A program made the position numbers and the translations under genes. Under the pieces are notes generated by a model that was not told the origin of the DNA, searched no databases, and saw only the letters and a list, made by a program, of their open reading frames with translations. Positions 496 to 9,142 of a stretch of DNA of 53,695 nt are shown in pieces; within the stretch, counting starts at the first letter, position 1, and each line of letters starts with the position of its first letter. The stretch is from an uncultured Subdoligranulum sp. (GTDB lineage Bacteria > Bacillota > Clostridia > Oscillospirales > Ruminococcaceae): the NCBI GenBank assembly GCA_964542725.1, contig CAZIVF010000002.1:1-53695 (forward strand). The letters are read 5' to 3'.

Positions 496-1644
496 ATGGA
501 AAAATCGACTGTGTATTTTACGGATTTCCGCTGCCCGGTGGGTACAAGCCAGCTGGATAAGCTCAAGCGCCTGTGCCTTGCGGCGGGCATCAGAGGCATT
601 GACATGGACGGCAAATTCGTCGCCATCAAGATGCATTTCGGCGAGTTGGGCAACCTGGCTTTTCTGCGGCCCAACTACGCCAAGGTGGTGGCGGATCTGT
701 GCAAAGAGCAGGGCGGCCTGCCGTTCCTGACGGACTGCAACACCCTGTATCCGGGCAGCCGCAAGAACGCGCTGGAGCACATGGACTGCGCGAACCTCAA
801 CGGCTTCAACACGGTGACGACCGGCTGCCAGATCATTATCGGCGACGGCCTGCGCGGCACCGATGAGTTGGAGGTTCCCGTAGTGAACGGCGAGTATTGC
901 CGCACCGCCAAGATCGGTCGTGCCATCATGGATGCTGACGTCTTTATCAGTCTGACCCACTTTAAGGGGCATGAGTCCACCGGCTTCGGCGGCGCGGTCA
1001 AGAACATCGGCATGGGCTGCGGCAGCCGCGCCGGCAAGATGGAGCAGCACACCAGCGGCAAGCCCGCCATCAACGCGGACCGCTGCCGCGGCTGCCACCG
1101 CTGCGCCAGCGAGTGCGGCAGCGATGCCATCACCTATGTGGGTGGCAAGGCTGTGATCGACTACGATCTTTGCAAGGGCTGCGGCCGCTGCATCGGCGCG
1201 TGCAGCTTTGACGCTGTGTACAATCCCAACGACTGCGCCAACGAACTTCTGGACCGCAAAATGGCGGAGTACGCCCAAGCGGTCTGCTATGGGCGGCCCT
1301 GCTTCCACATTGCTCTGGTGCAGGATATCAGCCCCAACTGTGACTGTCACGGTGAGAACGACTCCCCCATTCTGCCGGACATCGGCATGTTCGCCAGCTT
1401 TGACCCGGTGGCGCTGGATCAAGCCTGCGCTGACGCCTGCCTGAACGCCAAGCCCCTGCCCAACAGCCAGCTGGGCGAGCATCTGGCCACCCCGGGCTGG
1501 AAGCTCTACCACGACCACTTCAAGGATTCCAACCCCAACATCGAGTGGAAGGCCACCTTGGAGCAGGCGGAGAAGATCGGCCTGGGTACCCGCCAATATG
1601 AATTGAAGCGCGTGGGGCCGACGACGCGTGTGAGCAAAGGCTGA
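496..1644 (+). CDS. DUF362 domain 4Fe-4S ferredoxin-type protein
   Basis: RBS AAGGAG before ATG 496. Motifs AIKMHFGE, TDCNTLY and HFKGH...GGAVKNIGMG, two CxxCxxCxxxC ferredoxin motifs, and CDC. Confidence 0.88.
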   Translation: MEKSTVYFTDFRCPVGTSQLDKLKRLCLAAGIRGIDMDGKFVAIKMHFGELGNLAFLRPNYAKVVADLCKEQGGLPFLTDCNTLYPGSRKNALEHMDCANLNGFNTVTTGCQIIIGDGLRGTDELEVPVVNGEYCRTAKIGRAIMDADVFISLTHFKGHESTGFGGAVKNIGMGCGSRAGKMEQHTSGKPAINADRCRGCHRCASECGSDAITYVGGKAVIDYDLCKGCGRCIGACSFDAVYNPNDCANELLDRKMAEYAQAVCYGRPCFHIALVQDISPNCDCHGENDSPILPDIGMFASFDPVALDQACADACLNAKPLPNSQLGEHLATPGWKLYHDHFKDSNPNIEWKATLEQAEKIGLGTRQYELKRVGPTTRVSKG

Positions 1645-1893: not shown

Positions 1894-2298
1894 ATGAAAG
1901 CTTGGTTCCAGCGCTTTATGTCCGGCCGGTATGGGTACGATCAGCTTGGCCGGTTTCTCTGCTTTTTCGCCATGGCCTGCCTGCTGTTGGGGCTGTTTGC
2001 CAACGGGCTTCTCAACGGTGTGTTCTACTGGGTGGGGCTGGCCGTTCTGGTCTGGGCCTATTTTCGCATGTTCAGCCGCAACACCCGCAAGCGCTACGCC
2101 GAAAATCAGAAATATTTACAGCTGATGCGCCCCGTGAACGCCCGGTTCGCTAAGTGGAAGCTGCGCTTTGACCAGCGCAAGGTTTACCGGTACTACCGCT
2201 GCCCCCACTGCCACCAGGAACTGCGGGTGCCGCGCGGGCGGGGACGTATCTCCATCAGCTGCCCCAAATGCGGCACCACTTTTATCAAAAAGAGTTGA
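1894..2298 (+). CDS. membrane protein with C-terminal zinc ribbon (CPHC...CPKC)
   Basis: ATG 1894 after AAGGTGG. GRYGYDQL motif, two hydrophobic helices, RYAENQKYL, then CPHCHQELRVPRGRGRISISCPKC. Confidence 0.8.
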   Translation: MKAWFQRFMSGRYGYDQLGRFLCFFAMACLLLGLFANGLLNGVFYWVGLAVLVWAYFRMFSRNTRKRYAENQKYLQLMRPVNARFAKWKLRFDQRKVYRYYRCPHCHQELRVPRGRGRISISCPKCGTTFIKKS

Positions 2299-2304
2299 CG
2301 AACC

Positions 2305-3156
2305 ATGTTCGGGTATGTTACCATTTTCCGTAAGGAGTTGGATGACGCGGCGCTGGACTGCTACCAGAGTTATTACTGCGGCCTGTGCGAAGCGTTGGGC
2401 CGCCGCTACGGCGTGGCCGGCCGGCTTACCCTGAGCTACGATATGGCCTTTGCGGCGATGCTGCTCACCGCGCTGTATGAGCCGGACACCGCATTGACCC
2501 AGGGGCGCTGCCTGCCCCACCCGATGCGGGCTAAGCCCCGCGCCGCCAACGAATTTTTGGACTATGCGGCGGATATGACCATCGCGCTGGCATACTATAA
2601 TTGTATGGACGATTGGCAGGACGACCATCACCGGCGCAGCCTGTGGCAGGCCCAAAAGCTGGAGCGGTTCCTGCCGGAGATTCGTCGCCGGTGGCCCCGC
2701 CAGTGCGCCGCCATCGATACCCAGCTGGCTGCCCTGAACGAATTGGAGGGCGCGGGCAGCCACGATCTGGACGCGCTGTGCGGCGCTTTCGGCGCGCTGT
2801 TGGGCGCGGTGTTCGCCTGCCGTGACGATGTTTGGCGCCCCCTGCTGGAAGGGATGGGCCGGGGTTTGGGGGGCTTCATCTACCTGATGGACGCCTACGA
2901 TGATCTGGACAGGGATCGCCGCCATGGGCGCTACAACGCGCTGGCCGCACTGGCCGGGGCGCTGCCCAAGGAGGAATACGAAACGCGTTGCCATGAACTT
3001 TTGACCCAGCAGATGGGCCTCTGCGCGCAGCAGTTTGAGCTGCTGCCTATCTTGAAGGACACCAACGAGGGCAAACTGCTGTACAACACAATCTATGCCG
3101 GCGTGTGGTGCAAATACGCGCTGGTAAAGCGATACAGGGAGGGGCGGAAAAAATGA
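2305..3156 (+). CDS. DUF5685 family protein
   Basis: MFGYV start, YYCGLC, RLTLSYD, CLPHP, DDWQDD and [12 protein letters not shown]...YN motifs typical of this family. Confidence 0.8.
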
Positions 3157-3869
3157 CTGATCCGTACAGCGTGCTGGGGATCTCCCCCGACGCCGACGAG
3201 GACACCATCAAAAAAGCCTACCGCCAAAAGTGTAAGCAGTACCATCCCGACCTGCACCCCAACGACGCCGCCGCCGAGGAGAAATTCAAGGAAGTACAGG
3301 CCGCCTACAGTGAGATACAGAACCGCAAGAACGGCGGCCAAACTGCCCAGGGCGGCTACCAGGGCTACGGGCAGAGCGGCTACGGAAGCCGGGATACCGG
3401 ATATCAGGATCCCTTCCGCGGCGGGTACGACCCCTTTGGCTTTGGATTTTACAGTAGCCATGGCCGCCAAAGCCAGCAGGAGCAGCAGCCTGAGATGCAG
3501 GCCGCTGCCAACTATATCCGCAGCGGCTATTACCAGGAGGGACTCAACGCCCTGAACGACATTCCCGCCGGCCAGCGCACGGCCCGGTGGCATTACTATG
3601 CCGCGCTGGCCCACCAGGGCCTGGGGAGCAATATCCGCGCCCAAGAGGAAGCCCGCACCGCCGTGCAGATGGAACCGGGCAACTTTACCTACCAGGACCT
3701 TTTGAACCAGCTGCAGAATCCAAGCCGAACCTACACCCGCTATCAGCGCCCCTATGCTCAGCCCAGCCGGCCGCACAGCTTTTTGCTGAACCTGTGGATG
3801 TATATGATTCTGTGCAACCTTTTAAGCTGCTGCTGTTGCGGCCGCCCCAGCGGATTTTTCTGCTGTTGA
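3153..3869 (+). CDS. J-domain (DnaJ-like class C) protein with TPR-like helices and Cys-rich hydrophobic C-terminus
   Basis: DPYSVLG...IKKAYR...YHPD...[13 protein letters not shown] domain. The ATG overlaps the upstream TGA (ATGA). G/Y-rich linker, TPR-like [10 protein letters not shown]...EPGN, tail [19 protein letters not shown]. Confidence 0.88.
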
Positions 3870-3881
3870 ATCAAAAAATTT

Positions 3882-3923
3882 GCCCCGCCCCGCTGCATAT
3901 TTGCCGCGGGGCGGGGCTTTTTT
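3882..3923. terminator. rho-independent terminator between convergent genes (probably bidirectional)
   Basis: GCCCCGCCCCGC / GCGGGGCGGGGC stem followed by T6, with an A-run upstream. Confidence 0.8.
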
Positions 3924-3945
3924 GGGCAGAGAGAAGCACTGCCAT

Positions 3946-4719
3946 TCACACAGGCGCTTCGGCGATCAGCGCAAGCGCCAAACGCACCAGGTTTTCCCGC
4001 GTGGTGTACTGCCGGTTCCAGTCGCGGGCGTTCCACTCTGCGCCGGTCAGATCATCCCCGGCGTACAGCAGCTGCGCCAGCGGCAGGCCGTAGAACTGCG
4101 CCACCGCAAAAAAGGCGGCGCACTCCATCTCGACCGTCAGGCAGCCCTCCCCGGCGCGCCGCCGAATCTTATCCTCCGTCTCGCGGTAAAAGGCGTCGGT
4201 GGTCCAGGTCTTGCCCTCCACAAAGGGCAGCTCCATGGCCTGCAGCTGCGACCGCACCGCATCCAGCGCCTGCGCCGGGCAGGCGACCTCCCGCGCGGGC
4301 GGTAAGTAATGGTAGGAGGTCCCCTCGTCCCGCACAGCGGCGGCGGGCAGGATCAGTTTCCCCACCGTCAAATCGCTGCACAGGCTGCCGGCGCTGCCGC
4401 AGACAAGGAACGCCCCGCATCCCATGGCGTGCAGTTCCTCGATGGTTCCCGCCGCGCCGGGGGCGGTGGCAAACGGCATCGTCAGCGCGATGGACTGCCC
4501 GTTTTTCCTGTACTCATAGATCGGGATATCCACGATCTCGGAATGGAGATGGTCCAGGATTTTACAGTCGTTTTCCCGGATAATCTTCTCCAGGGCGTCC
4601 CGGAAAAAGGTAATCACGCACTTGCCGGGCAGCGTTTTGGGGAGTATATCCGCCGCCCGAATCTTGGCCGTCCGGTCGGTGTCATACTCTATAATAGGGT
4701 AAGCTTGGGCAGTAAGCAT
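3946..4719 (-). CDS. nucleoside phosphorylase (PNP_UDP_1, uridine phosphorylase-like)
   Basis: GSAGSL, RDEGTSYHY, TWTTDAFYRET, VEME motifs. Confidence 0.88.
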   Translation of the reverse strand: MLTAQAYPIIEYDTDRTAKIRAADILPKTLPGKCVITFFRDALEKIIRENDCKILDHLHSEIVDIPIYEYRKNGQSIALTMPFATAPGAAGTIEELHAMGCGAFLVCGSAGSLCSDLTVGKLILPAAAVRDEGTSYHYLPPAREVACPAQALDAVRSQLQAMELPFVEGKTWTTDAFYRETEDKIRRRAGEGCLTVEMECAAFFAVAQFYGLPLAQLLYAGDDLTGAEWNARDWNRQYTTRENLVRLALALIAEAPV

Positions 4720-4730
4720 ACAAACTCCTT

Positions 4731-5414
4731 TCAGGCGAACAGCCTTTCGAGCAGCGGCTCCAGCGTCTCGATGTTCTGTTGGAATTGGGGGTAAAATTCG
4801 TCCCGGATGCTATAGTCATAATACAACGCCCTGGCTATGCGGCGCCGGGCGGCGGCCAGGCGGGGGTGTTCGCGGTTGGCCAACAGCTGCTCAGACAGAG
4901 CGGTGCAGACCGCCGCCCACCGTGCGTCGACACCGGCGCGCTCCAACACACCGGCGTCCCGCAGGCAGTCCCGCAAAGTCCGCCCACCGGCGCGCGCGCC
5001 GCACAGCGGGGTTTGGGCGTAGTATTCTACCGCAGCGACGGCGGGGTCGATGCTCTGCCCCAGCGGGTAGAGCGCGCAGACCAGGGGGCGGGCCTGGTGG
5101 ATCAGGCAGGCCCCGCCCTCCAAAAAACGGCAGTCGCCGGTTTTGGGGTCAGGCGTCAGGCGCAGGGCGGGCAGCATCGTTTTTTGCCCCAGGTATTCCC
5201 GGCAGAAGGCGGCGGCCACCACCCGGGGCGGCAGATCCAGCCGCCGGGCGATACGGTACAGGTCATAGCCGGAGAGCACCAGGTCCCGCCGGGCGCGGCA
5301 GCAGCCGCCGCAGCCCGCGCAGACAAAAGCAAACGGCTCGTCCAGATCCAGGCGGGGGCAGGAATCCCATTCCCTCTCCCCTGCCCGCCCCGGCTCAGGG
5401 GCGCGGCTGCTCAC
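4731..5414 (-). CDS. YkgJ family CxxCxxCC cysteine-cluster protein
   Basis: FVCAGCGGCC ... CRFL...CLIHQARPLVCALYP. The GTG start overlaps the upstream stop. Confidence 0.8.
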   Translation of the reverse strand: MSSRAPEPGRAGEREWDSCPRLDLDEPFAFVCAGCGGCCRARRDLVLSGYDLYRIARRLDLPPRVVAAAFCREYLGQKTMLPALRLTPDPKTGDCRFLEGGACLIHQARPLVCALYPLGQSIDPAVAAVEYYAQTPLCGARAGGRTLRDCLRDAGVLERAGVDARWAAVCTALSEQLLANREHPRLAAARRRIARALYYDYSIRDEFYPQFQQNIETLEPLLERLFA

Positions 5415-6397
5415 AGAGGCACCTCGTCGGGGTTGGGACGGCCCGCGGCGAAGCAGTCCACCGCCTCGAAGGCGCTCTGCACCATGCTGACCACATTCAC
5501 ATCGGTATAAAACGCCATGTGCGGGCTGACAATAACGTTGGGGAAGCTGCGCAGCAGTGCCAGCTCCCGGTTATGCAGCGCCTCCCCGCAGCGGTTATAG
5601 TAGCACAGGCCGTTCTCGTCCTCCACCACGTCCAGGCCCGCGCCGCCGATCTTGCCGGATTCCAGCCCTGCAATCAGGGCCTCCGGGTCGATGAGGGTCC
5701 CGCGGGCGGTGTTCACCAGCAGCACGCCATCCTTCATCTTGGCGATGGCGGCGGTGTCGATCAGATGGTAGTTCTCCGGCGTGGCGTTGAGGTGCAGCGT
5801 GATGATATCGCTCTCTCTGTATAAGGTGTCCAGGTCGGTGTAGACGGCGTAGGGCAGCGCCTCCTCGCTGGGGTAGAGGTCGTAAGCCAGCACCTTGCAG
5901 CCAAAACCGGATAGATGCCGGATCACCGTCCGCCCGATTTTGCCGGCGCCGATGACGCCCACCGTGCAGTTGGTCAGGTCGCGGCCCATCTTGCCCTTGA
6001 GGGAGTAATCCTGTGCCACGGCCCGCAGCATGATCTGGTTCATCTTGCGGGTGGCCATCAGCATGAGCATGATGGTATAGTTGGCCACACCCTCGGGCGG
6101 ATAGTGGCTGTGCGCCACCCGCAGCCCCAGCCGCTTGGCGGCATCCAGCGGGATATGGTCGTAGCCGATACTGCGGCAGGGCAGATACCGCACCCCCAGC
6201 CGGGCGAATTCTTCCAGGTATTCGGGGCGTATCTCGCAAGGGTTGGTGCTGACCGCGTCGCAGCCCGCAGCCAGATGCAGATTCTCCGGCCGGGGCGGCT
6301 CCGTGGTCCAGGCGTAGTCGATGCCGTACCGAGCCTTGCACTGCTCACAGTATTCCAGTTCGTCGAAGGGACGCATGGTATAGAAAAAGATCTTCAT
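5411..6397 (-). CDS. D-isomer-specific 2-hydroxyacid dehydrogenase (D-lactate dehydrogenase-like)
   Basis: RSIGYDHI, GVIGAGKIG Rossmann motif, NTARG, LDVVEDE, SPHMAFYT. Confidence 0.9.
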   Translation of the reverse strand: MKIFFYTMRPFDELEYCEQCKARYGIDYAWTTEPPRPENLHLAAGCDAVSTNPCEIRPEYLEEFARLGVRYLPCRSIGYDHIPLDAAKRLGLRVAHSHYPPEGVANYTIMLMLMATRKMNQIMLRAVAQDYSLKGKMGRDLTNCTVGVIGAGKIGRTVIRHLSGFGCKVLAYDLYPSEEALPYAVYTDLDTLYRESDIITLHLNATPENYHLIDTAAIAKMKDGVLLVNTARGTLIDPEALIAGLESGKIGGAGLDVVEDENGLCYYNRCGEALHNRELALLRSFPNVIVSPHMAFYTDVNVVSMVQSAFEAVDCFAAGRPNPDEVPL

Positions 6398-6412
6398 GGG
6401 AAGGTTCCTCCC

Positions 6413-6562
6413 TCAGATATGGAAGTCAAAGGTCTGGTAGCCGCCGCCGGGCAGAATAAGAACGGCGGGGCGGCGCTCATAGCCGGGCATCTTTTCATCG
6501 GGTTCCCGCAGCCATCCGGTCAGCTTTGCGCCGCTGGGAAGGGTGTATTCACAGAGTTTCAT
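6413..6562 (-). pseudogene. 49-codon remnant of an alpha/beta hydrolase (acetyl esterase/lipase-like)
   Basis: Strong RBS GAGGAGG and ATG 6562. MKLCEYTLPSGAKLTGWLREP...RRPAVLILPGGGY ends after 7 more residues, with no GxSxG. Confidence 0.65.
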
Positions 6563-6576
6563 CTTATATTGCCTCC

Positions 6577-7044
6577 TCACGCTTGGGCGGCGGGCAGCGG
6601 GTGAGCCGCGATGTATTCCGCCAGAAGATCGGCAGCCAGGCGGCAAAGTTCGCCGCAGGGCCGCTTTTTATAATATTCATCGGTGCGGGGGCTGGCGGCG
6701 GGGCTGCCCTCCGGTTTAGCCAGCCCTAACAGTTCCCGGCAGAGGATGCTGCCGCCGCCGTTCTCCGCTTTATAGCGGGCGGCCAGCGCTTGCACCTCGG
6801 TGTAGAGGGCGGTCTTTTGTTCCGGATCATCGGAGCCGTACAGCGCCCCCAACACCAGCACAAGGCCGGAGAAGGCGCCGCAGACCTCCCGCATGCGGCC
6901 CATGCCGCCGCCGAAGCCCACGGTCATCCGAAAAATCTGGGTCTCGGTCATGCCCATCTCTTGGGCGAAGGCGGCGGCCACCGCCTGGCTGCAGTTGTAG
7001 CCCTGATGAAAATATTGGCAGGCCCTTTCCCCATAAACAGACAT
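6577..7044 (-). CDS. C-GCAxxG-C-C family putative redox protein
   Basis: GYNCSQAV, GFGGGMG, EVCGAFSG, ILCRELLG, PC motifs. Confidence 0.88.
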   Translation of the reverse strand: MSVYGERACQYFHQGYNCSQAVAAAFAQEMGMTETQIFRMTVGFGGGMGRMREVCGAFSGLVLVLGALYGSDDPEQKTALYTEVQALAARYKAENGGGSILCRELLGLAKPEGSPAASPRTDEYYKKRPCGELCRLAADLLAEYIAAHPLPAAQA

Positions 7045-7206: not shown

Positions 7207-7240
7207 ATTATTGAATATCATAAAGCGAGGTAATCCTAGT

Positions 7241-9142
7241 ATGGCTATGCGTCAATTCAAAGCGGAAAGCAAAAAGCTGCTGGACCTTATGATCAACTCC
7301 ATCTATACCAACCGTGAGATCTTCCTGCGGGAATTGATCTCCAATGCGTCGGACGCCTGTGACAAACGGTACTTCAACAGCCTGACCGACACTTCCATCG
7401 ACATCAAGAAGGAGGATCTGCACATCCACCTGACGCTGGACAAGGACAGCCGCACCTTGACCATCAGCGACAACGGCATCGGCATGACCAAGGAGGAACT
7501 GGAAAAGGACCTTGGCACCATCGCCCGCTCCGGCAGCCTGGATTTCAAGAACGAGAACCAGAGCAACAACATCGATATCATCGGCCAATTCGGCGTGGGC
7601 TTCTACTCCGCCTTCATGGTCGCCTCCAAGGTGACGGTGATCTCCCGCGCCCAGGGGTCCGAGGAGGCTTGGCAGTGGACTTCCAAGGGTGTGGAGGGCT
7701 ACACCCTGACCGCCGGGGATAAGGACGAGGTCGGCACCGAGATCATCCTGGTCCTCAAGGAAGATACCGACAACGACAACTACAGCCAATACCTGGAGAC
7801 CTACACCATCCAAAACCTGGTGCGCAAGTACAGCGACTATATCCACTTCCCCATCACGATGTTCGTGGAGAAGTCCCGCCAGAAGCCCAAGCCGGAGGAT
7901 GCGGGCGAGGATTACCAGCCGGAGTACGAGAGCTATACCGAGCTGGAGACGCTGAACAGCATGGTGCCGCTGTGGAAACGCCCCAAGAGCGAGGTCAAGG
8001 ACGAGGACTACAACGAATTTTACAAGAGCAAATTCAATGACTGGGCCGACCCGCTGCGGGTCATTACCTCCCGCACCGAGGGTACCGCCACCTACACCGC
8101 GATGCTCTTTGTTCCCAGCCAGACCCCCTACGACTTCTACACCAAGGAGTATGAGAAGGGCCTGGCGCTGTACGCCTCCGGCGTGATGATTATGGAGAAG
8201 TGCGGCGACCTGCTGCCGGACTACTTCAGCTTCATCAAGGGCGTGGTGGACAGCGAGGATTTGAGCCTGAACATCAGCCGCGAGACGCTGCAGCAGGACA
8301 GCCAGCTCAAGCTGATGCGCAACAGCCTGGAAAAGAAGATCAAGAACGAACTGCGCGCCATGCTGAACAATGACCGGGAGAAGTACGAGACCTTCTGGAA
8401 AGCCTTTGGCCGCCAGATCAAGTTCGGCATCTACGGCGACTACGGCATGCACAAGGACTTGCTGGCCGAGCTGCTGCTCTTCTACTCCGCCAAGGAGCAG
8501 AAGCTGGTGACGCTGGACGAGTATATTGAAAAGATGCCCGAGGGCCAGAAGTGCATCTACTTTGCCGCCGGCGACGACACCGACCGCCTTGGCAAACTCC
8601 CCAACGCCCAGCTGGTGCTGAGCAAGGGCTACGACCTGCTGCTCTGCACCGAGGATGTGGATGAGTTCTGCCTGCAGATGATGCGCAATTACAAGGAGAA
8701 GGAGTTTAAGAACATCAACTCCGGCGACCTGGGCCTGGAGACCGAGGAGGAAAAGAAAGCCGCCGAGGAGGCCGCCAGTGAGAACAAGGATCTCTTTGAG
8801 GAGATCAAGGCCGCGCTGAACGGCAAGGTCAAGGAGGTCAAGGCCAACCCCACCCTGCAGGCCCATCCGGTGAGCCTTTCCAGCGAGGGCGGCCTCTCGA
8901 TGGAGATGGAGAAGGTGCTGCGCAAGATGCCCGGTTCGGATGGCGTTGAGAGCACCAAGGTGCTGGAACTGAACCCCAATCACACCGCCTTTGCTGCGCT
9001 GAAGGCCGCCCATGAGGCGGGCGACGGCGACAAGGTGAAGCAGTACGCCGAGCTGCTGTACGACCAGGCGCTGCTCATCGCGGGACTGCCCATCGAGGAC
9101 CCCGTCGCCTACGCCCAGCTGGTCTGCGGCCTGATGAAGTAA
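7241..9142 (+). CDS. htpG: molecular chaperone HtpG (Hsp90)
   Basis: SIYTNREIFLRELISNASDA, DNGIGM, IGQFGVGFYSAF, GVVDSEDLSLNISRE. Confidence 0.97.
   Translation: MAMRQFKAESKKLLDLMINSIYTNREIFLRELISNASDACDKRYFNSLTDTSIDIKKEDLHIHLTLDKDSRTLTISDNGIGMTKEELEKDLGTIARSGSLDFKNENQSNNIDIIGQFGVGFYSAFMVASKVTVISRAQGSEEAWQWTSKGVEGYTLTAGDKDEVGTEIILVLKEDTDNDNYSQYLETYTIQNLVRKYSDYIHFPITMFVEKSRQKPKPEDAGEDYQPEYESYTELETLNSMVPLWKRPKSEVKDEDYNEFYKSKFNDWADPLRVITSRTEGTATYTAMLFVPSQTPYDFYTKEYEKGLALYASGVMIMEKCGDLLPDYFSFIKGVVDSEDLSLNISRETLQQDSQLKLMRNSLEKKIKNELRAMLNNDREKYETFWKAFGRQIKFGIYGDYGMHKDLLAELLLFYSAKEQKLVTLDEYIEKMPEGQKCIYFAAGDDTDRLGKLPNAQLVLSKGYDLLLCTEDVDEFCLQMMRNYKEKEFKNINSGDLGLETEEEKKAAEEAASENKDLFEEIKAALNGKVKEVKANPTLQAHPVSLSSEGGLSMEMEKVLRKMPGSDGVESTKVLELNPNHTAFAALKAAHEAGDGDKVKQYAELLYDQALLIAGLPIEDPVAYAQLVCGLMK

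Follow-up and report, generated by a model that had tools for sequence, protein, structure and literature searches.

What does a DUF5685 protein do beside a J-domain protein that ends in a string of cysteines? The question is raised by positions 1,894 to 3,923 of a window of DNA, by which is meant the whole stretch of 53,695 nucleotides analysed, from an uncultured Subdoligranulum sp. (GenBank assembly GCA_964542725.1, contig CAZIVF010000002.1). A first-pass annotation had read the locus as a compact operon encoding a candidate membrane co-chaperone or protein-lipidation system, and its gene order is borne out by the sequence and the open reading frame (ORF) calls: three forward-strand ORFs, a 6-bp gap between ORF1 and ORF2 (2299-2304), an ATGA overlap of ORF2 and ORF3 (3153-3156) and one terminator. 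The real core is two genes, DUF5685 and its cysteine-tail partner, and it is widespread. The reading preferred here, given a probability of about 0.45, is that DUF5685 carries out zinc-assisted cysteine S-prenylation, which would anchor an Hsp70 co-chaperone to the membrane. The three genes are as follows.

1894-2298, + strand: ORF1, 134 aa, accessory membrane protein with a basic linker and a C-terminal C4 zinc ribbon (C103, C106, C123, C126), from sequence and homologues
2305-3156, + strand: ORF2, 283 aa, DUF5685 protein with a predicted class I isoprenoid synthase fold of the trans-IDS type (IDS, isoprenyl diphosphate synthase), from Pfam, model, Foldseek and VIA comparisons
3153-3869, + strand: ORF3, 238 aa, class C J-domain protein with J domain, disordered G/Y/F-rich linker (63-108), tetratricopeptide repeats (TPR), docking helix and cysteine tail, from Pfam and model

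DUF5685 and its cysteine-tail partner

Gene neighbourhoods were compared at 149 DUF5685 loci, leaving out the window's own locus, two duplicates, one plasmid locus and one fragment, and the 141 loci with at least 900 nt downstream were used for partner counts. The next gene encodes a cysteine-tail partner in 134 of these, with J domain, TPR and tail in 128, without the J domain in four and without TPR in two. Shorter loci add one partner of each reduced kind, and the tail stays where the J domain is lost (five loci in all) or the TPR is lost (three in all). Of the seven exceptions, L058 has the tail fused to DUF5685, in an operon with the same polyprenyl synthase subfamily as the convergent operons described below; L059, L060 and L061 face such an operon, with a polyprenyl synthase and a cysteine-tail gene 2-8 kb away; the genome of L037 holds an unlinked J-TPR gene with a reduced tail; L063 is a fragment; and L071 has no tail gene within 4 kb. 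In a single sample of 301 genomes from the phylum, DUF5685 was found in 37 (in one as a fragment only) and a strong match to the TPR part and tail (E<=1e-17, next best 3e-9) in 29, all of them among the 37 DUF5685 carriers. The linkage of DUF5685 with the J-TPR-Cys gene, as first noted in the window, is thus borne out by neighbourhood analysis in 134/141 loci and 29/29 genomes. The cysteine tail is the constant partner of DUF5685, and the J and TPR parts are each dispensable.

The same association appears within single proteins. Among 150 representatives clustered at 50 % identity and drawn from a distant query, a cysteine-rich extension is fused to 82 of the 99 long members and 3 of the 51 short ones, and a fused cysteine tail is present in 4/4 named Actinomycetota and Bacteroidota records. 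Other domains are seen among 30 long members selected for a closer look, namely a J domain, zinc ribbons, NfeD or a RING. Homology of the fused and separate tails is not accepted beyond composition, following a shuffle comparison, and a fused DUF5685-J protein (P0124), present on a single contig and maybe a small deletion or an assembly artefact, was not counted as evidence. In several fused representatives the cysteine-rich part is preceded by basic residues that end in Gly, which might be a cleavage site and resembles prepilin leaders. At L058:4053-6988, L176 and L177 three genes come after the fused DUF5685-tail gene, one of unknown kind, one for a polyprenyl synthase and one for an A24 peptidase, and at L178:4846-6250 (-) the order is rearranged, with the J-TPR-Cys gene upstream of DUF5685 and a small membrane gene between them.

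The partner in the window, ORF3, carries a J domain (PF00226, E 1.2e-19) with the HPD motif and lacks the class A and B C-terminal domains, as expected of a class C protein. Its model consists of the J domain, a disordered linker, TPR helices at 113-188, a short helix and a cysteine-bearing helix, and TPR_2 is matched at E<=0.05 by 31 of 40 relatives. Seven cysteines lie among the last 18 residues, and the tail is hydrophobic with a terminal Cys.

3243-3251, + strand: HPD motif, residues 31-33, present in 54/55 J-bearing partners listed
3780-3866, + strand: helix at the C-terminus with the cysteine string (C221, C226-C229, C237, C238), a tail proposed to act as acceptor or to bind metal, from sequence and tail comparison

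Across 128 distinct separate partner tails the median is seven Cys in the last 32 aa; 99 tails end in Cys, 60 of them in CC, 67 contain Trp and 22 have Cys at -4. Only 32 of the 128 reach a 19-residue Kyte-Doolittle hydropathy (KD19) of >=1.6, and the tail is not a clear transmembrane helix. The earlier description of a J protein with an intact HPD and a cysteine-rich hydrophobic tail is confirmed with this one reservation. The CYSTM profile does not match ORF3 of the window and is absent among the 25 of 39 families listed for 40 members.

The third gene is of another kind. ORF1 has hydrophobic residues at about 17-57, where 19-residue Kyte-Doolittle windows reach up to 2.26, compatible with two helices, and its CxxC...CxxC is invariant in 13/13 aligned homologues, in agreement with the annotation of a two-helix membrane zinc-ribbon protein; no Pfam family exceeds its cut-off in this protein. 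Strong matches to the zinc-ribbon gene were found in 22 of the 301 genomes, 11 of them without DUF5685, and in 9 of the 11 with both, the genes are adjacent. An obligate three-gene unit, as the annotation had implied, is not supported by these counts, with the zinc-ribbon gene in only 11/37 DUF5685 genomes and half of its carriers (11/22) lacking DUF5685. Among 126 assessable loci the zinc-ribbon gene is present in 68, where the tail is of the hydrophobic type without exception. Another 24 have a different, polytopic membrane gene instead, and the tail is of the acidic type in 21 of these; tail types were assigned by a simple pattern, and the two genes occur together in 0/126. A membrane protein is thus frequent as third member but exchangeable and outside the core, and the zinc-ribbon gene is accessory. 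In a genome that lacks DUF5685 (L207:718-1896), the zinc-ribbon gene comes after a gene for a membrane protein whose C-terminal end is J-like and bears an HPD, which ties the zinc-ribbon gene to J proteins a second time.

Motifs, predicted fold and predicted docking of DUF5685

ORF2 matches PF18937 (DUF5685) at E 2.6e-86, with 289.9 bits against a cut-off of 26.7, over positions 1-270 of 272 of the profile. The family comprises 3141 clusters at 50 % identity (E<=0.001) and is common in gut Clostridia. The AlphaFold2 model, built with 61 sequences, has a predicted local distance difference test (pLDDT) value of 95.7 and a predicted template modelling score of 0.92. All listed Foldseek matches are class I isoprenoid synthases, only one of them at E<=0.001, and VIA-align superposes the model on a trans-polyprenyl synthase with Z 19.4 (root mean square deviation 2.9 over 237 residues, colinear) and on MoeN5 with Z 16.1 (3.8 over 227 residues). 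When the PDB was searched by sequence, neither the protein nor its profile gave a match below E 0.1. The model and alignment contain the all-helical trans-IDS core and the two Asp-rich motifs of class I isoprenoid synthases, and the Asp-rich motifs pointed out in the first-pass annotation are intact in what appears to be a prenyl-diphosphate-enzyme fold. ORF2 is accordingly predicted to be a Mg-dependent prenyl-diphosphate enzyme. Conservation was counted in an alignment of 443 sequences unless stated otherwise.

2377-2511, + strand: near-invariant C25, C28 and C69 (with D46), candidate open metal site
2608-2622, + strand: first Asp-rich motif D102-D103-x-x-D106 (D102 442/443, D106 436/443)
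2890-2937, + strand: second Asp-rich motif D196-x3-D200-x3-D204-x6-N211 (443, 442, 442 and 439 of 443)
3612-3755, + strand: predicted DUF5685-binding surface of ORF3, residues 154-164 and 190-201, from the predicted complex and conservation

D102, D196, D200 and D204 are kept in 150/150 of the distant representatives, and E148 in 441/443 sequences. C25, C28 and C69 are kept in 439, 441 and 442 of 443 sequences and in 147, 149 and 149 of the 150 representatives, and C69 sits on a beta-hairpin that is added relative to chain-elongating trans-IDS. By analogy with thiol-activating Cys3-Zn sites (PMC539065), we infer that the three cysteines form an open zinc site. Covariation hints at C25-D46 and L70-H108 are weak and noisy (effective number of sequences about 320 for 283 columns).

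Several features separate the protein from known synthases of the same fold. No Arg is conserved at 107-111 after the first motif in the 443 sequences, so chain elongation is unlikely and the acceptor is probably not isopentenyl diphosphate (IPP). The second motif reads D-A-x-x-D in place of the DDxxD of chain-elongating trans-IDS, and PF00348 gave no match in the Pfam scan. For the KT motif and the GKRxR IPP site the profile alignment to PF00348 is weak (2.1 %), with a residue other than Lys opposite KT. Position 193 is Tyr in 422/443 and aligns, again weakly, with the Gln that precedes the second motif of trans-IDS. In an hhalign comparison with YtpB-type proteins (12.6 %; <=3.4 % in 10 column shuffles) the second motif D196/D200/D204 falls on their class IB motif, residue 99 is Lys or Asn where the class IB first motif has its leading Asp, and PF10776 (DUF2600) has no match to ORF2 in the Pfam scan. 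Judged by these motifs, DUF5685 is unlikely to be a chain-elongating synthase and, by the first motif, is not a class IB synthase.

A complex was predicted for DUF5685 and ORF3 residues 108-238 with a Zn ligand, using custom alignments. The complex of DUF5685 with the TPR part scored 0.76 against 0.00 for the best control, runs agreed in >=43 % of contacts, and the partner pLDDT was >=72; the score mark is reached by 116/157 solved complexes and 2/215 mismatched pairs, a calibration that holds roughly for a prediction with custom alignments and a Zn ligand. The interface involves enzyme residues 8, 11, 155-159, 231-242 and 264-272, and on ORF3 it includes the conserved G158 and Y194. This prediction supports binding of DUF5685 to the TPR part of ORF3, and an interaction between the two proteins, which the annotation had suggested looking for, is what the model predicts.

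In a quick tree, without a clade test, the DUF5685 of the window lies in the clostridial J-TPR clade, apart from the synthase-linked clades. Beyond these, Thermotoga maritima, used as a control genome, has a DUF5685 match over the cut-off, and the family also occurs in four other records, two in a plasmid collection and two labelled as 'phage', without annotation and of faecal origin; the one read, L154, resembles chromosomal DNA (gmk, rpoZ, priA).

Proposed chemistry and rival explanations

Two kinds of neighbouring gene bear on function. A DnaK-like gene lies in the operon of eight clostridial loci, upstream in four and downstream in four, and is an extra copy in 5/5 genomes tested; the connection to Hsp70 proposed from the HPD motif is borne out to this extent. 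The proposal that the J protein chaperones the enzyme is weakened as a core function, since the J domain is absent in five loci that retain the TPR part and tail. The second kind is a polyprenyl synthase. In the G320-class convergent operon the gene order is cysteine-tail protein, GrpE-like, Hsp70, J-like, Hsp70, polyprenyl synthase and membrane protein, the GrpE, J-like and membrane labels being read from the sequence, and G097 and G247 have shorter versions. In family f107 a synthase of the same subfamily lies after the fused enzyme in 3/3 loci with enough flank. The chaperone/synthase operons convergent on DUF5685 are those at L236, L237, L238, L239, L240 (class of G320), L241 and L242; they encode short Hsp70s, one or two in number, besides a J-like protein whose HPD is altered and a synthase whose second motif is NDxNN. 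At L241 a stop interrupts the polyprenyl synthase.

In the reading preferred here, DUF5685 likely binds the J-domain protein encoded beside it through the latter's TPR, and the two Asp motifs of DUF5685 would ionise an allylic diphosphate in a Mg-dependent manner. The prenyl group, from farnesyl diphosphate (FPP) or from its geranylgeranyl counterpart, GGPP, is likely transferred onto cysteines of the C-terminal string of ORF3, with C25, C28 and C69 holding a Zn whose free position would activate the acceptor thiol, and a flexible stretch after residue 201 would let the tail reach the active site. The prenylated tail would anchor the Hsp70-recruiting co-chaperone at the membrane, where the zinc-ribbon protein, or the alternative polytopic protein, would be a membrane partner or client. 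Thiol alkylation by Cys3-Zn in MetH and BHMT and the use of Zn in farnesyltransferase (PMC539065) and trans-IDS-like peptide prenyltransferases (PMC13290415) are precedents, and yeast CYSTM proteins, whose cysteine string is a lipidation site and not a membrane helix (PMC10840359), show that a tail of this kind can serve for lipidation. The host encodes IspG and one trans-IDS.

Several observations weigh against cysteine prenylation. All characterised trans-IDS-like peptide prenyltransferases act on Trp (PMC13290415). The cysteine tail lies outside the confident interface residues, and the predicted complex gave no Zn position. The linked synthase has the altered second motif noted above and could itself be the transferase, and the clostridial J-TPR loci, the clade of the window, have no polyprenyl synthase within flanks of 1.5-4 kb. 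A reciprocal search from the linked synthase found DUF5685 in 8/25 loci, all close kin of the query, and more distant synthases with room downstream among these 25 had no DUF5685. As to the tails, 17/99 long representatives have no cysteine-rich extension, the similarity of fused and separate tails is mostly one of composition (4/10 beat >=195/200 shuffles), and many of the fused tails have an acidic character, with as many as 16 Cys per 30 residues, more like a metal-binding tail and resembling metallothionein. The acidic tails and the composition-level likeness of fused and separate ones weigh most against the preferred reading. The loci are also related to one another, and a small number of genomes probably entered twice, through two tools, which makes the counts descriptive and not independent.

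The acidic tails lead to a rather unlikely alternative in which the cysteine string is a metal or cluster module (Zn, Cu or Fe-S) that loads or regulates the Cys3 site of DUF5685 with Hsp70, the enzyme having another substrate. It would account for fused tails that are CxC/CC-rich and His-rich as well as acidic, for the 96/128 separate tails insufficiently hydrophobic for a membrane helix and for the zinc ribbons and RING fused to other DUF5685 members, and eukaryotic CYSTM proteins have been linked to metal resistance (PMC10840359). Against it, the number and spacing of cysteines vary widely, the window tail is hydrophobic with a terminal Cys, and the shared operon of cysteine-tail gene and polyprenyl synthase is left unexplained. 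Quite unlikely, too, is a small-molecule terpenoid enzyme, class IB-like or acting MoeN5-like on a lipid or sugar, with the J-TPR-tail protein as binding partner and tether. The class IB spacing of the second motif and its alignment with YtpB-type proteins speak for such an enzyme, as does predicted binding through the TPR and not the tail, and the nearest named Atlas clusters are DUF2600 and SQS_PSY (0.75-0.76, a lead only). The replacement of the first class IB Asp by Lys/Asn99 (motifs from PMC11234867) does not fit it; the three invariant cysteines and fused tails remain unexplained by it, and the neighbourhoods read showed no tailoring genes.

The Hsp70 genes can also be read as delivering a substrate. 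An improbable variant has DUF5685 attach the prenyl group to some third protein, such as the zinc-ribbon or polytopic membrane partner, brought by J-TPR and a dedicated Hsp70, the tail being no more than a tether. The extra DnaK in eight operons, the two Hsp70s, GrpE-like and J-like genes of the convergent operons and the presence of a membrane protein as third gene in 92/126 loci favour it, whereas the J domain is lost in five loci, fused enzyme-tail proteins are mostly without a J domain, and the zinc-ribbon gene occurs without DUF5685 in half of its genomes. Non-catalytic members of the isoprenoid-synthase fold exist, and a stable protein-protein interface is predicted here, so that DUF5685 might be a non-catalytic scaffold or assembly factor; this is very improbable for a family in which all Mg-binding positions are near-invariant in about 440 sequences.

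Locus signals, neighbours and known systems

Signals around the three genes were also compared within the genus.

1825-1857, + strand: promoter-like element, an 11-bp motif upstream of an extended -10-like box, from conservation in the genus
1878-1885, + strand: Shine-Dalgarno-like site of ORF1, from sequence, with a similar purine-rich site in genus loci
3871-3925, no strand assigned: intrinsic terminator hairpin, likely bidirectional, from folding and a terminator scan

The 33-bp promoter-like element is kept in 21/24 same-genus loci, the pattern having come from the same loci in which conservation was counted, and occurs once in its own genome. A sigma-70 scan did not report it, and a canonical -35 at normal spacing is absent from it. 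As a Rex operator it has three mismatches to the consensus used for comparison (PMC5886521) and 94 genome sites match equally well, and this assignment was not accepted. No CIRCE element was found in the loci scanned, and three lie elsewhere in the own genome. A hairpin in 3870-3930 has -39.9 kcal/mol and z -5.15, with 0/200 shuffles as stable; it is flanked by a 5' A-tract and a 3' U-tract and faces the convergent gene 3946-4719 (-). Together with a terminator-like site upstream of the unit (1774-1794), the promoter-like element gives a layout that fits co-transcription of the three ORFs as one unit. A longer ORF1 start at GTG 1660 was set aside; it would cross a terminator-like hairpin, and homologues begin near 1894.

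Homologues at 63-71 % identity carry the source label Gemmiger. Each of the three genes is single-copy in its own genome, which has one J protein besides ORF3. Directly upstream, beyond the terminator-like site, window 496-1644 (+) encodes a DUF362 protein with two 4Fe-4S motifs. The convergent genes at 3946-7044 (-) encode a nucleoside phosphorylase family protein, a CxxCxxCC protein, a D-2-hydroxyacid dehydrogenase and a C_GCAxxG_C_C redox protein, and 3.3 kb downstream an ORF at 7211-9142 (+) reads like HtpG/Hsp90, a label taken from its sequence.

In the literature a single paper mentions DUF5685, as a list entry, and none of the titles or abstracts returned describes the unit, subscription papers and supplements lying outside the search. 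DUF5685 differs from its best structural matches, chain-elongating trans-IDS (PF00348) and MoeN5 (Z 16-19), in that identity to them is 8-17 %, it lacks the Arg pair behind the first motif, its second motif is DxxxDxxxD and it has an added beta-hairpin. Class IB YtpB/BalTS enzymes (DUF2600; PMC11234867) share D-x3-D-x3-D-x6-N, in the spacing of DY(F,L,W)IDxxED, but the first motif of DUF5685 lacks the leading Asp of DYLDNLxD, there is no PF10776 match and the profile match is weak. By analogy, DUF5685 likely works like ComQ/ComX, as an isoprenoid-fold transferase beside its acceptor. ComQ/ComX, PalQ and the ChrPC P domain (PMC13290415) likewise combine an isoprenoid-synthase fold and two Asp-rich motifs, with a proposed acceptor that adjoins the enzyme gene, and PalQ favours a terminal acceptor residue, the proposed acceptor here being a C-terminal cysteine string. 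In ComQ-type enzymes the Gln before the second motif has been tied to Trp recognition (PMC13290415); DUF5685 has Tyr193 in place of this Gln and three invariant Cys, its partner tails have no conserved Trp, and its proposed acceptor is the cysteine string of a cytoplasmic co-chaperone or a fused tail.

DNAJC5 is the eukaryotic cysteine string protein, and such proteins are S-palmitoylated by DHHC enzymes. Like DNAJC5 and CYSTM/CYSPD proteins (PMC10840359), the partner has a J domain or low-complexity region followed by a cysteine string; unlike them, its tail travels with a prenyl-fold enzyme, and the likeness is without a sequence match. The eukaryotic farnesyltransferase, geranylgeranyltransferase and RabGGTase have an alpha-barrel fold, different from that of DUF5685. 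The chemistry proposed here, a Zn-activated Cys and a prenyl diphosphate, is the same as theirs (PMC539065), and the CC ending of 60/128 tails resembles that of Rab substrates; unlike farnesyltransferase and geranylgeranyltransferase substrates, the tails show no CaaX pattern, with Cys at -4 in only 22/128. A 2026 review treats cysteine S-prenylation as eukaryotic (PMC13290415). A Cys-directed member would, if true, be new chemistry for the trans-IDS fold and a new bacterial protein lipid anchor, and S-prenylation of the co-chaperone would give bacteria a eukaryote-like way to anchor a chaperone to the membrane; under the metal alternative a widespread DUF, and one of the only two J proteins found in this genome, would still gain a function. 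More tentatively, and doubtful as a generalisation, bacterial protein cysteine S-prenylation may exist in which a trans-IDS-fold enzyme that acquired a Cys3-Zn site attaches lipid to poly-Cys tails, either on an Hsp70 co-chaperone in trans or on the enzyme itself in cis. Within that broader and less certain proposal the outcome would be a station for Hsp70 at the membrane, which in some lineages brings along its own DnaK, GrpE and prenyl donor synthase, and the system would be convergent with the protein prenylation of eukaryotes and with cysteine string proteins.

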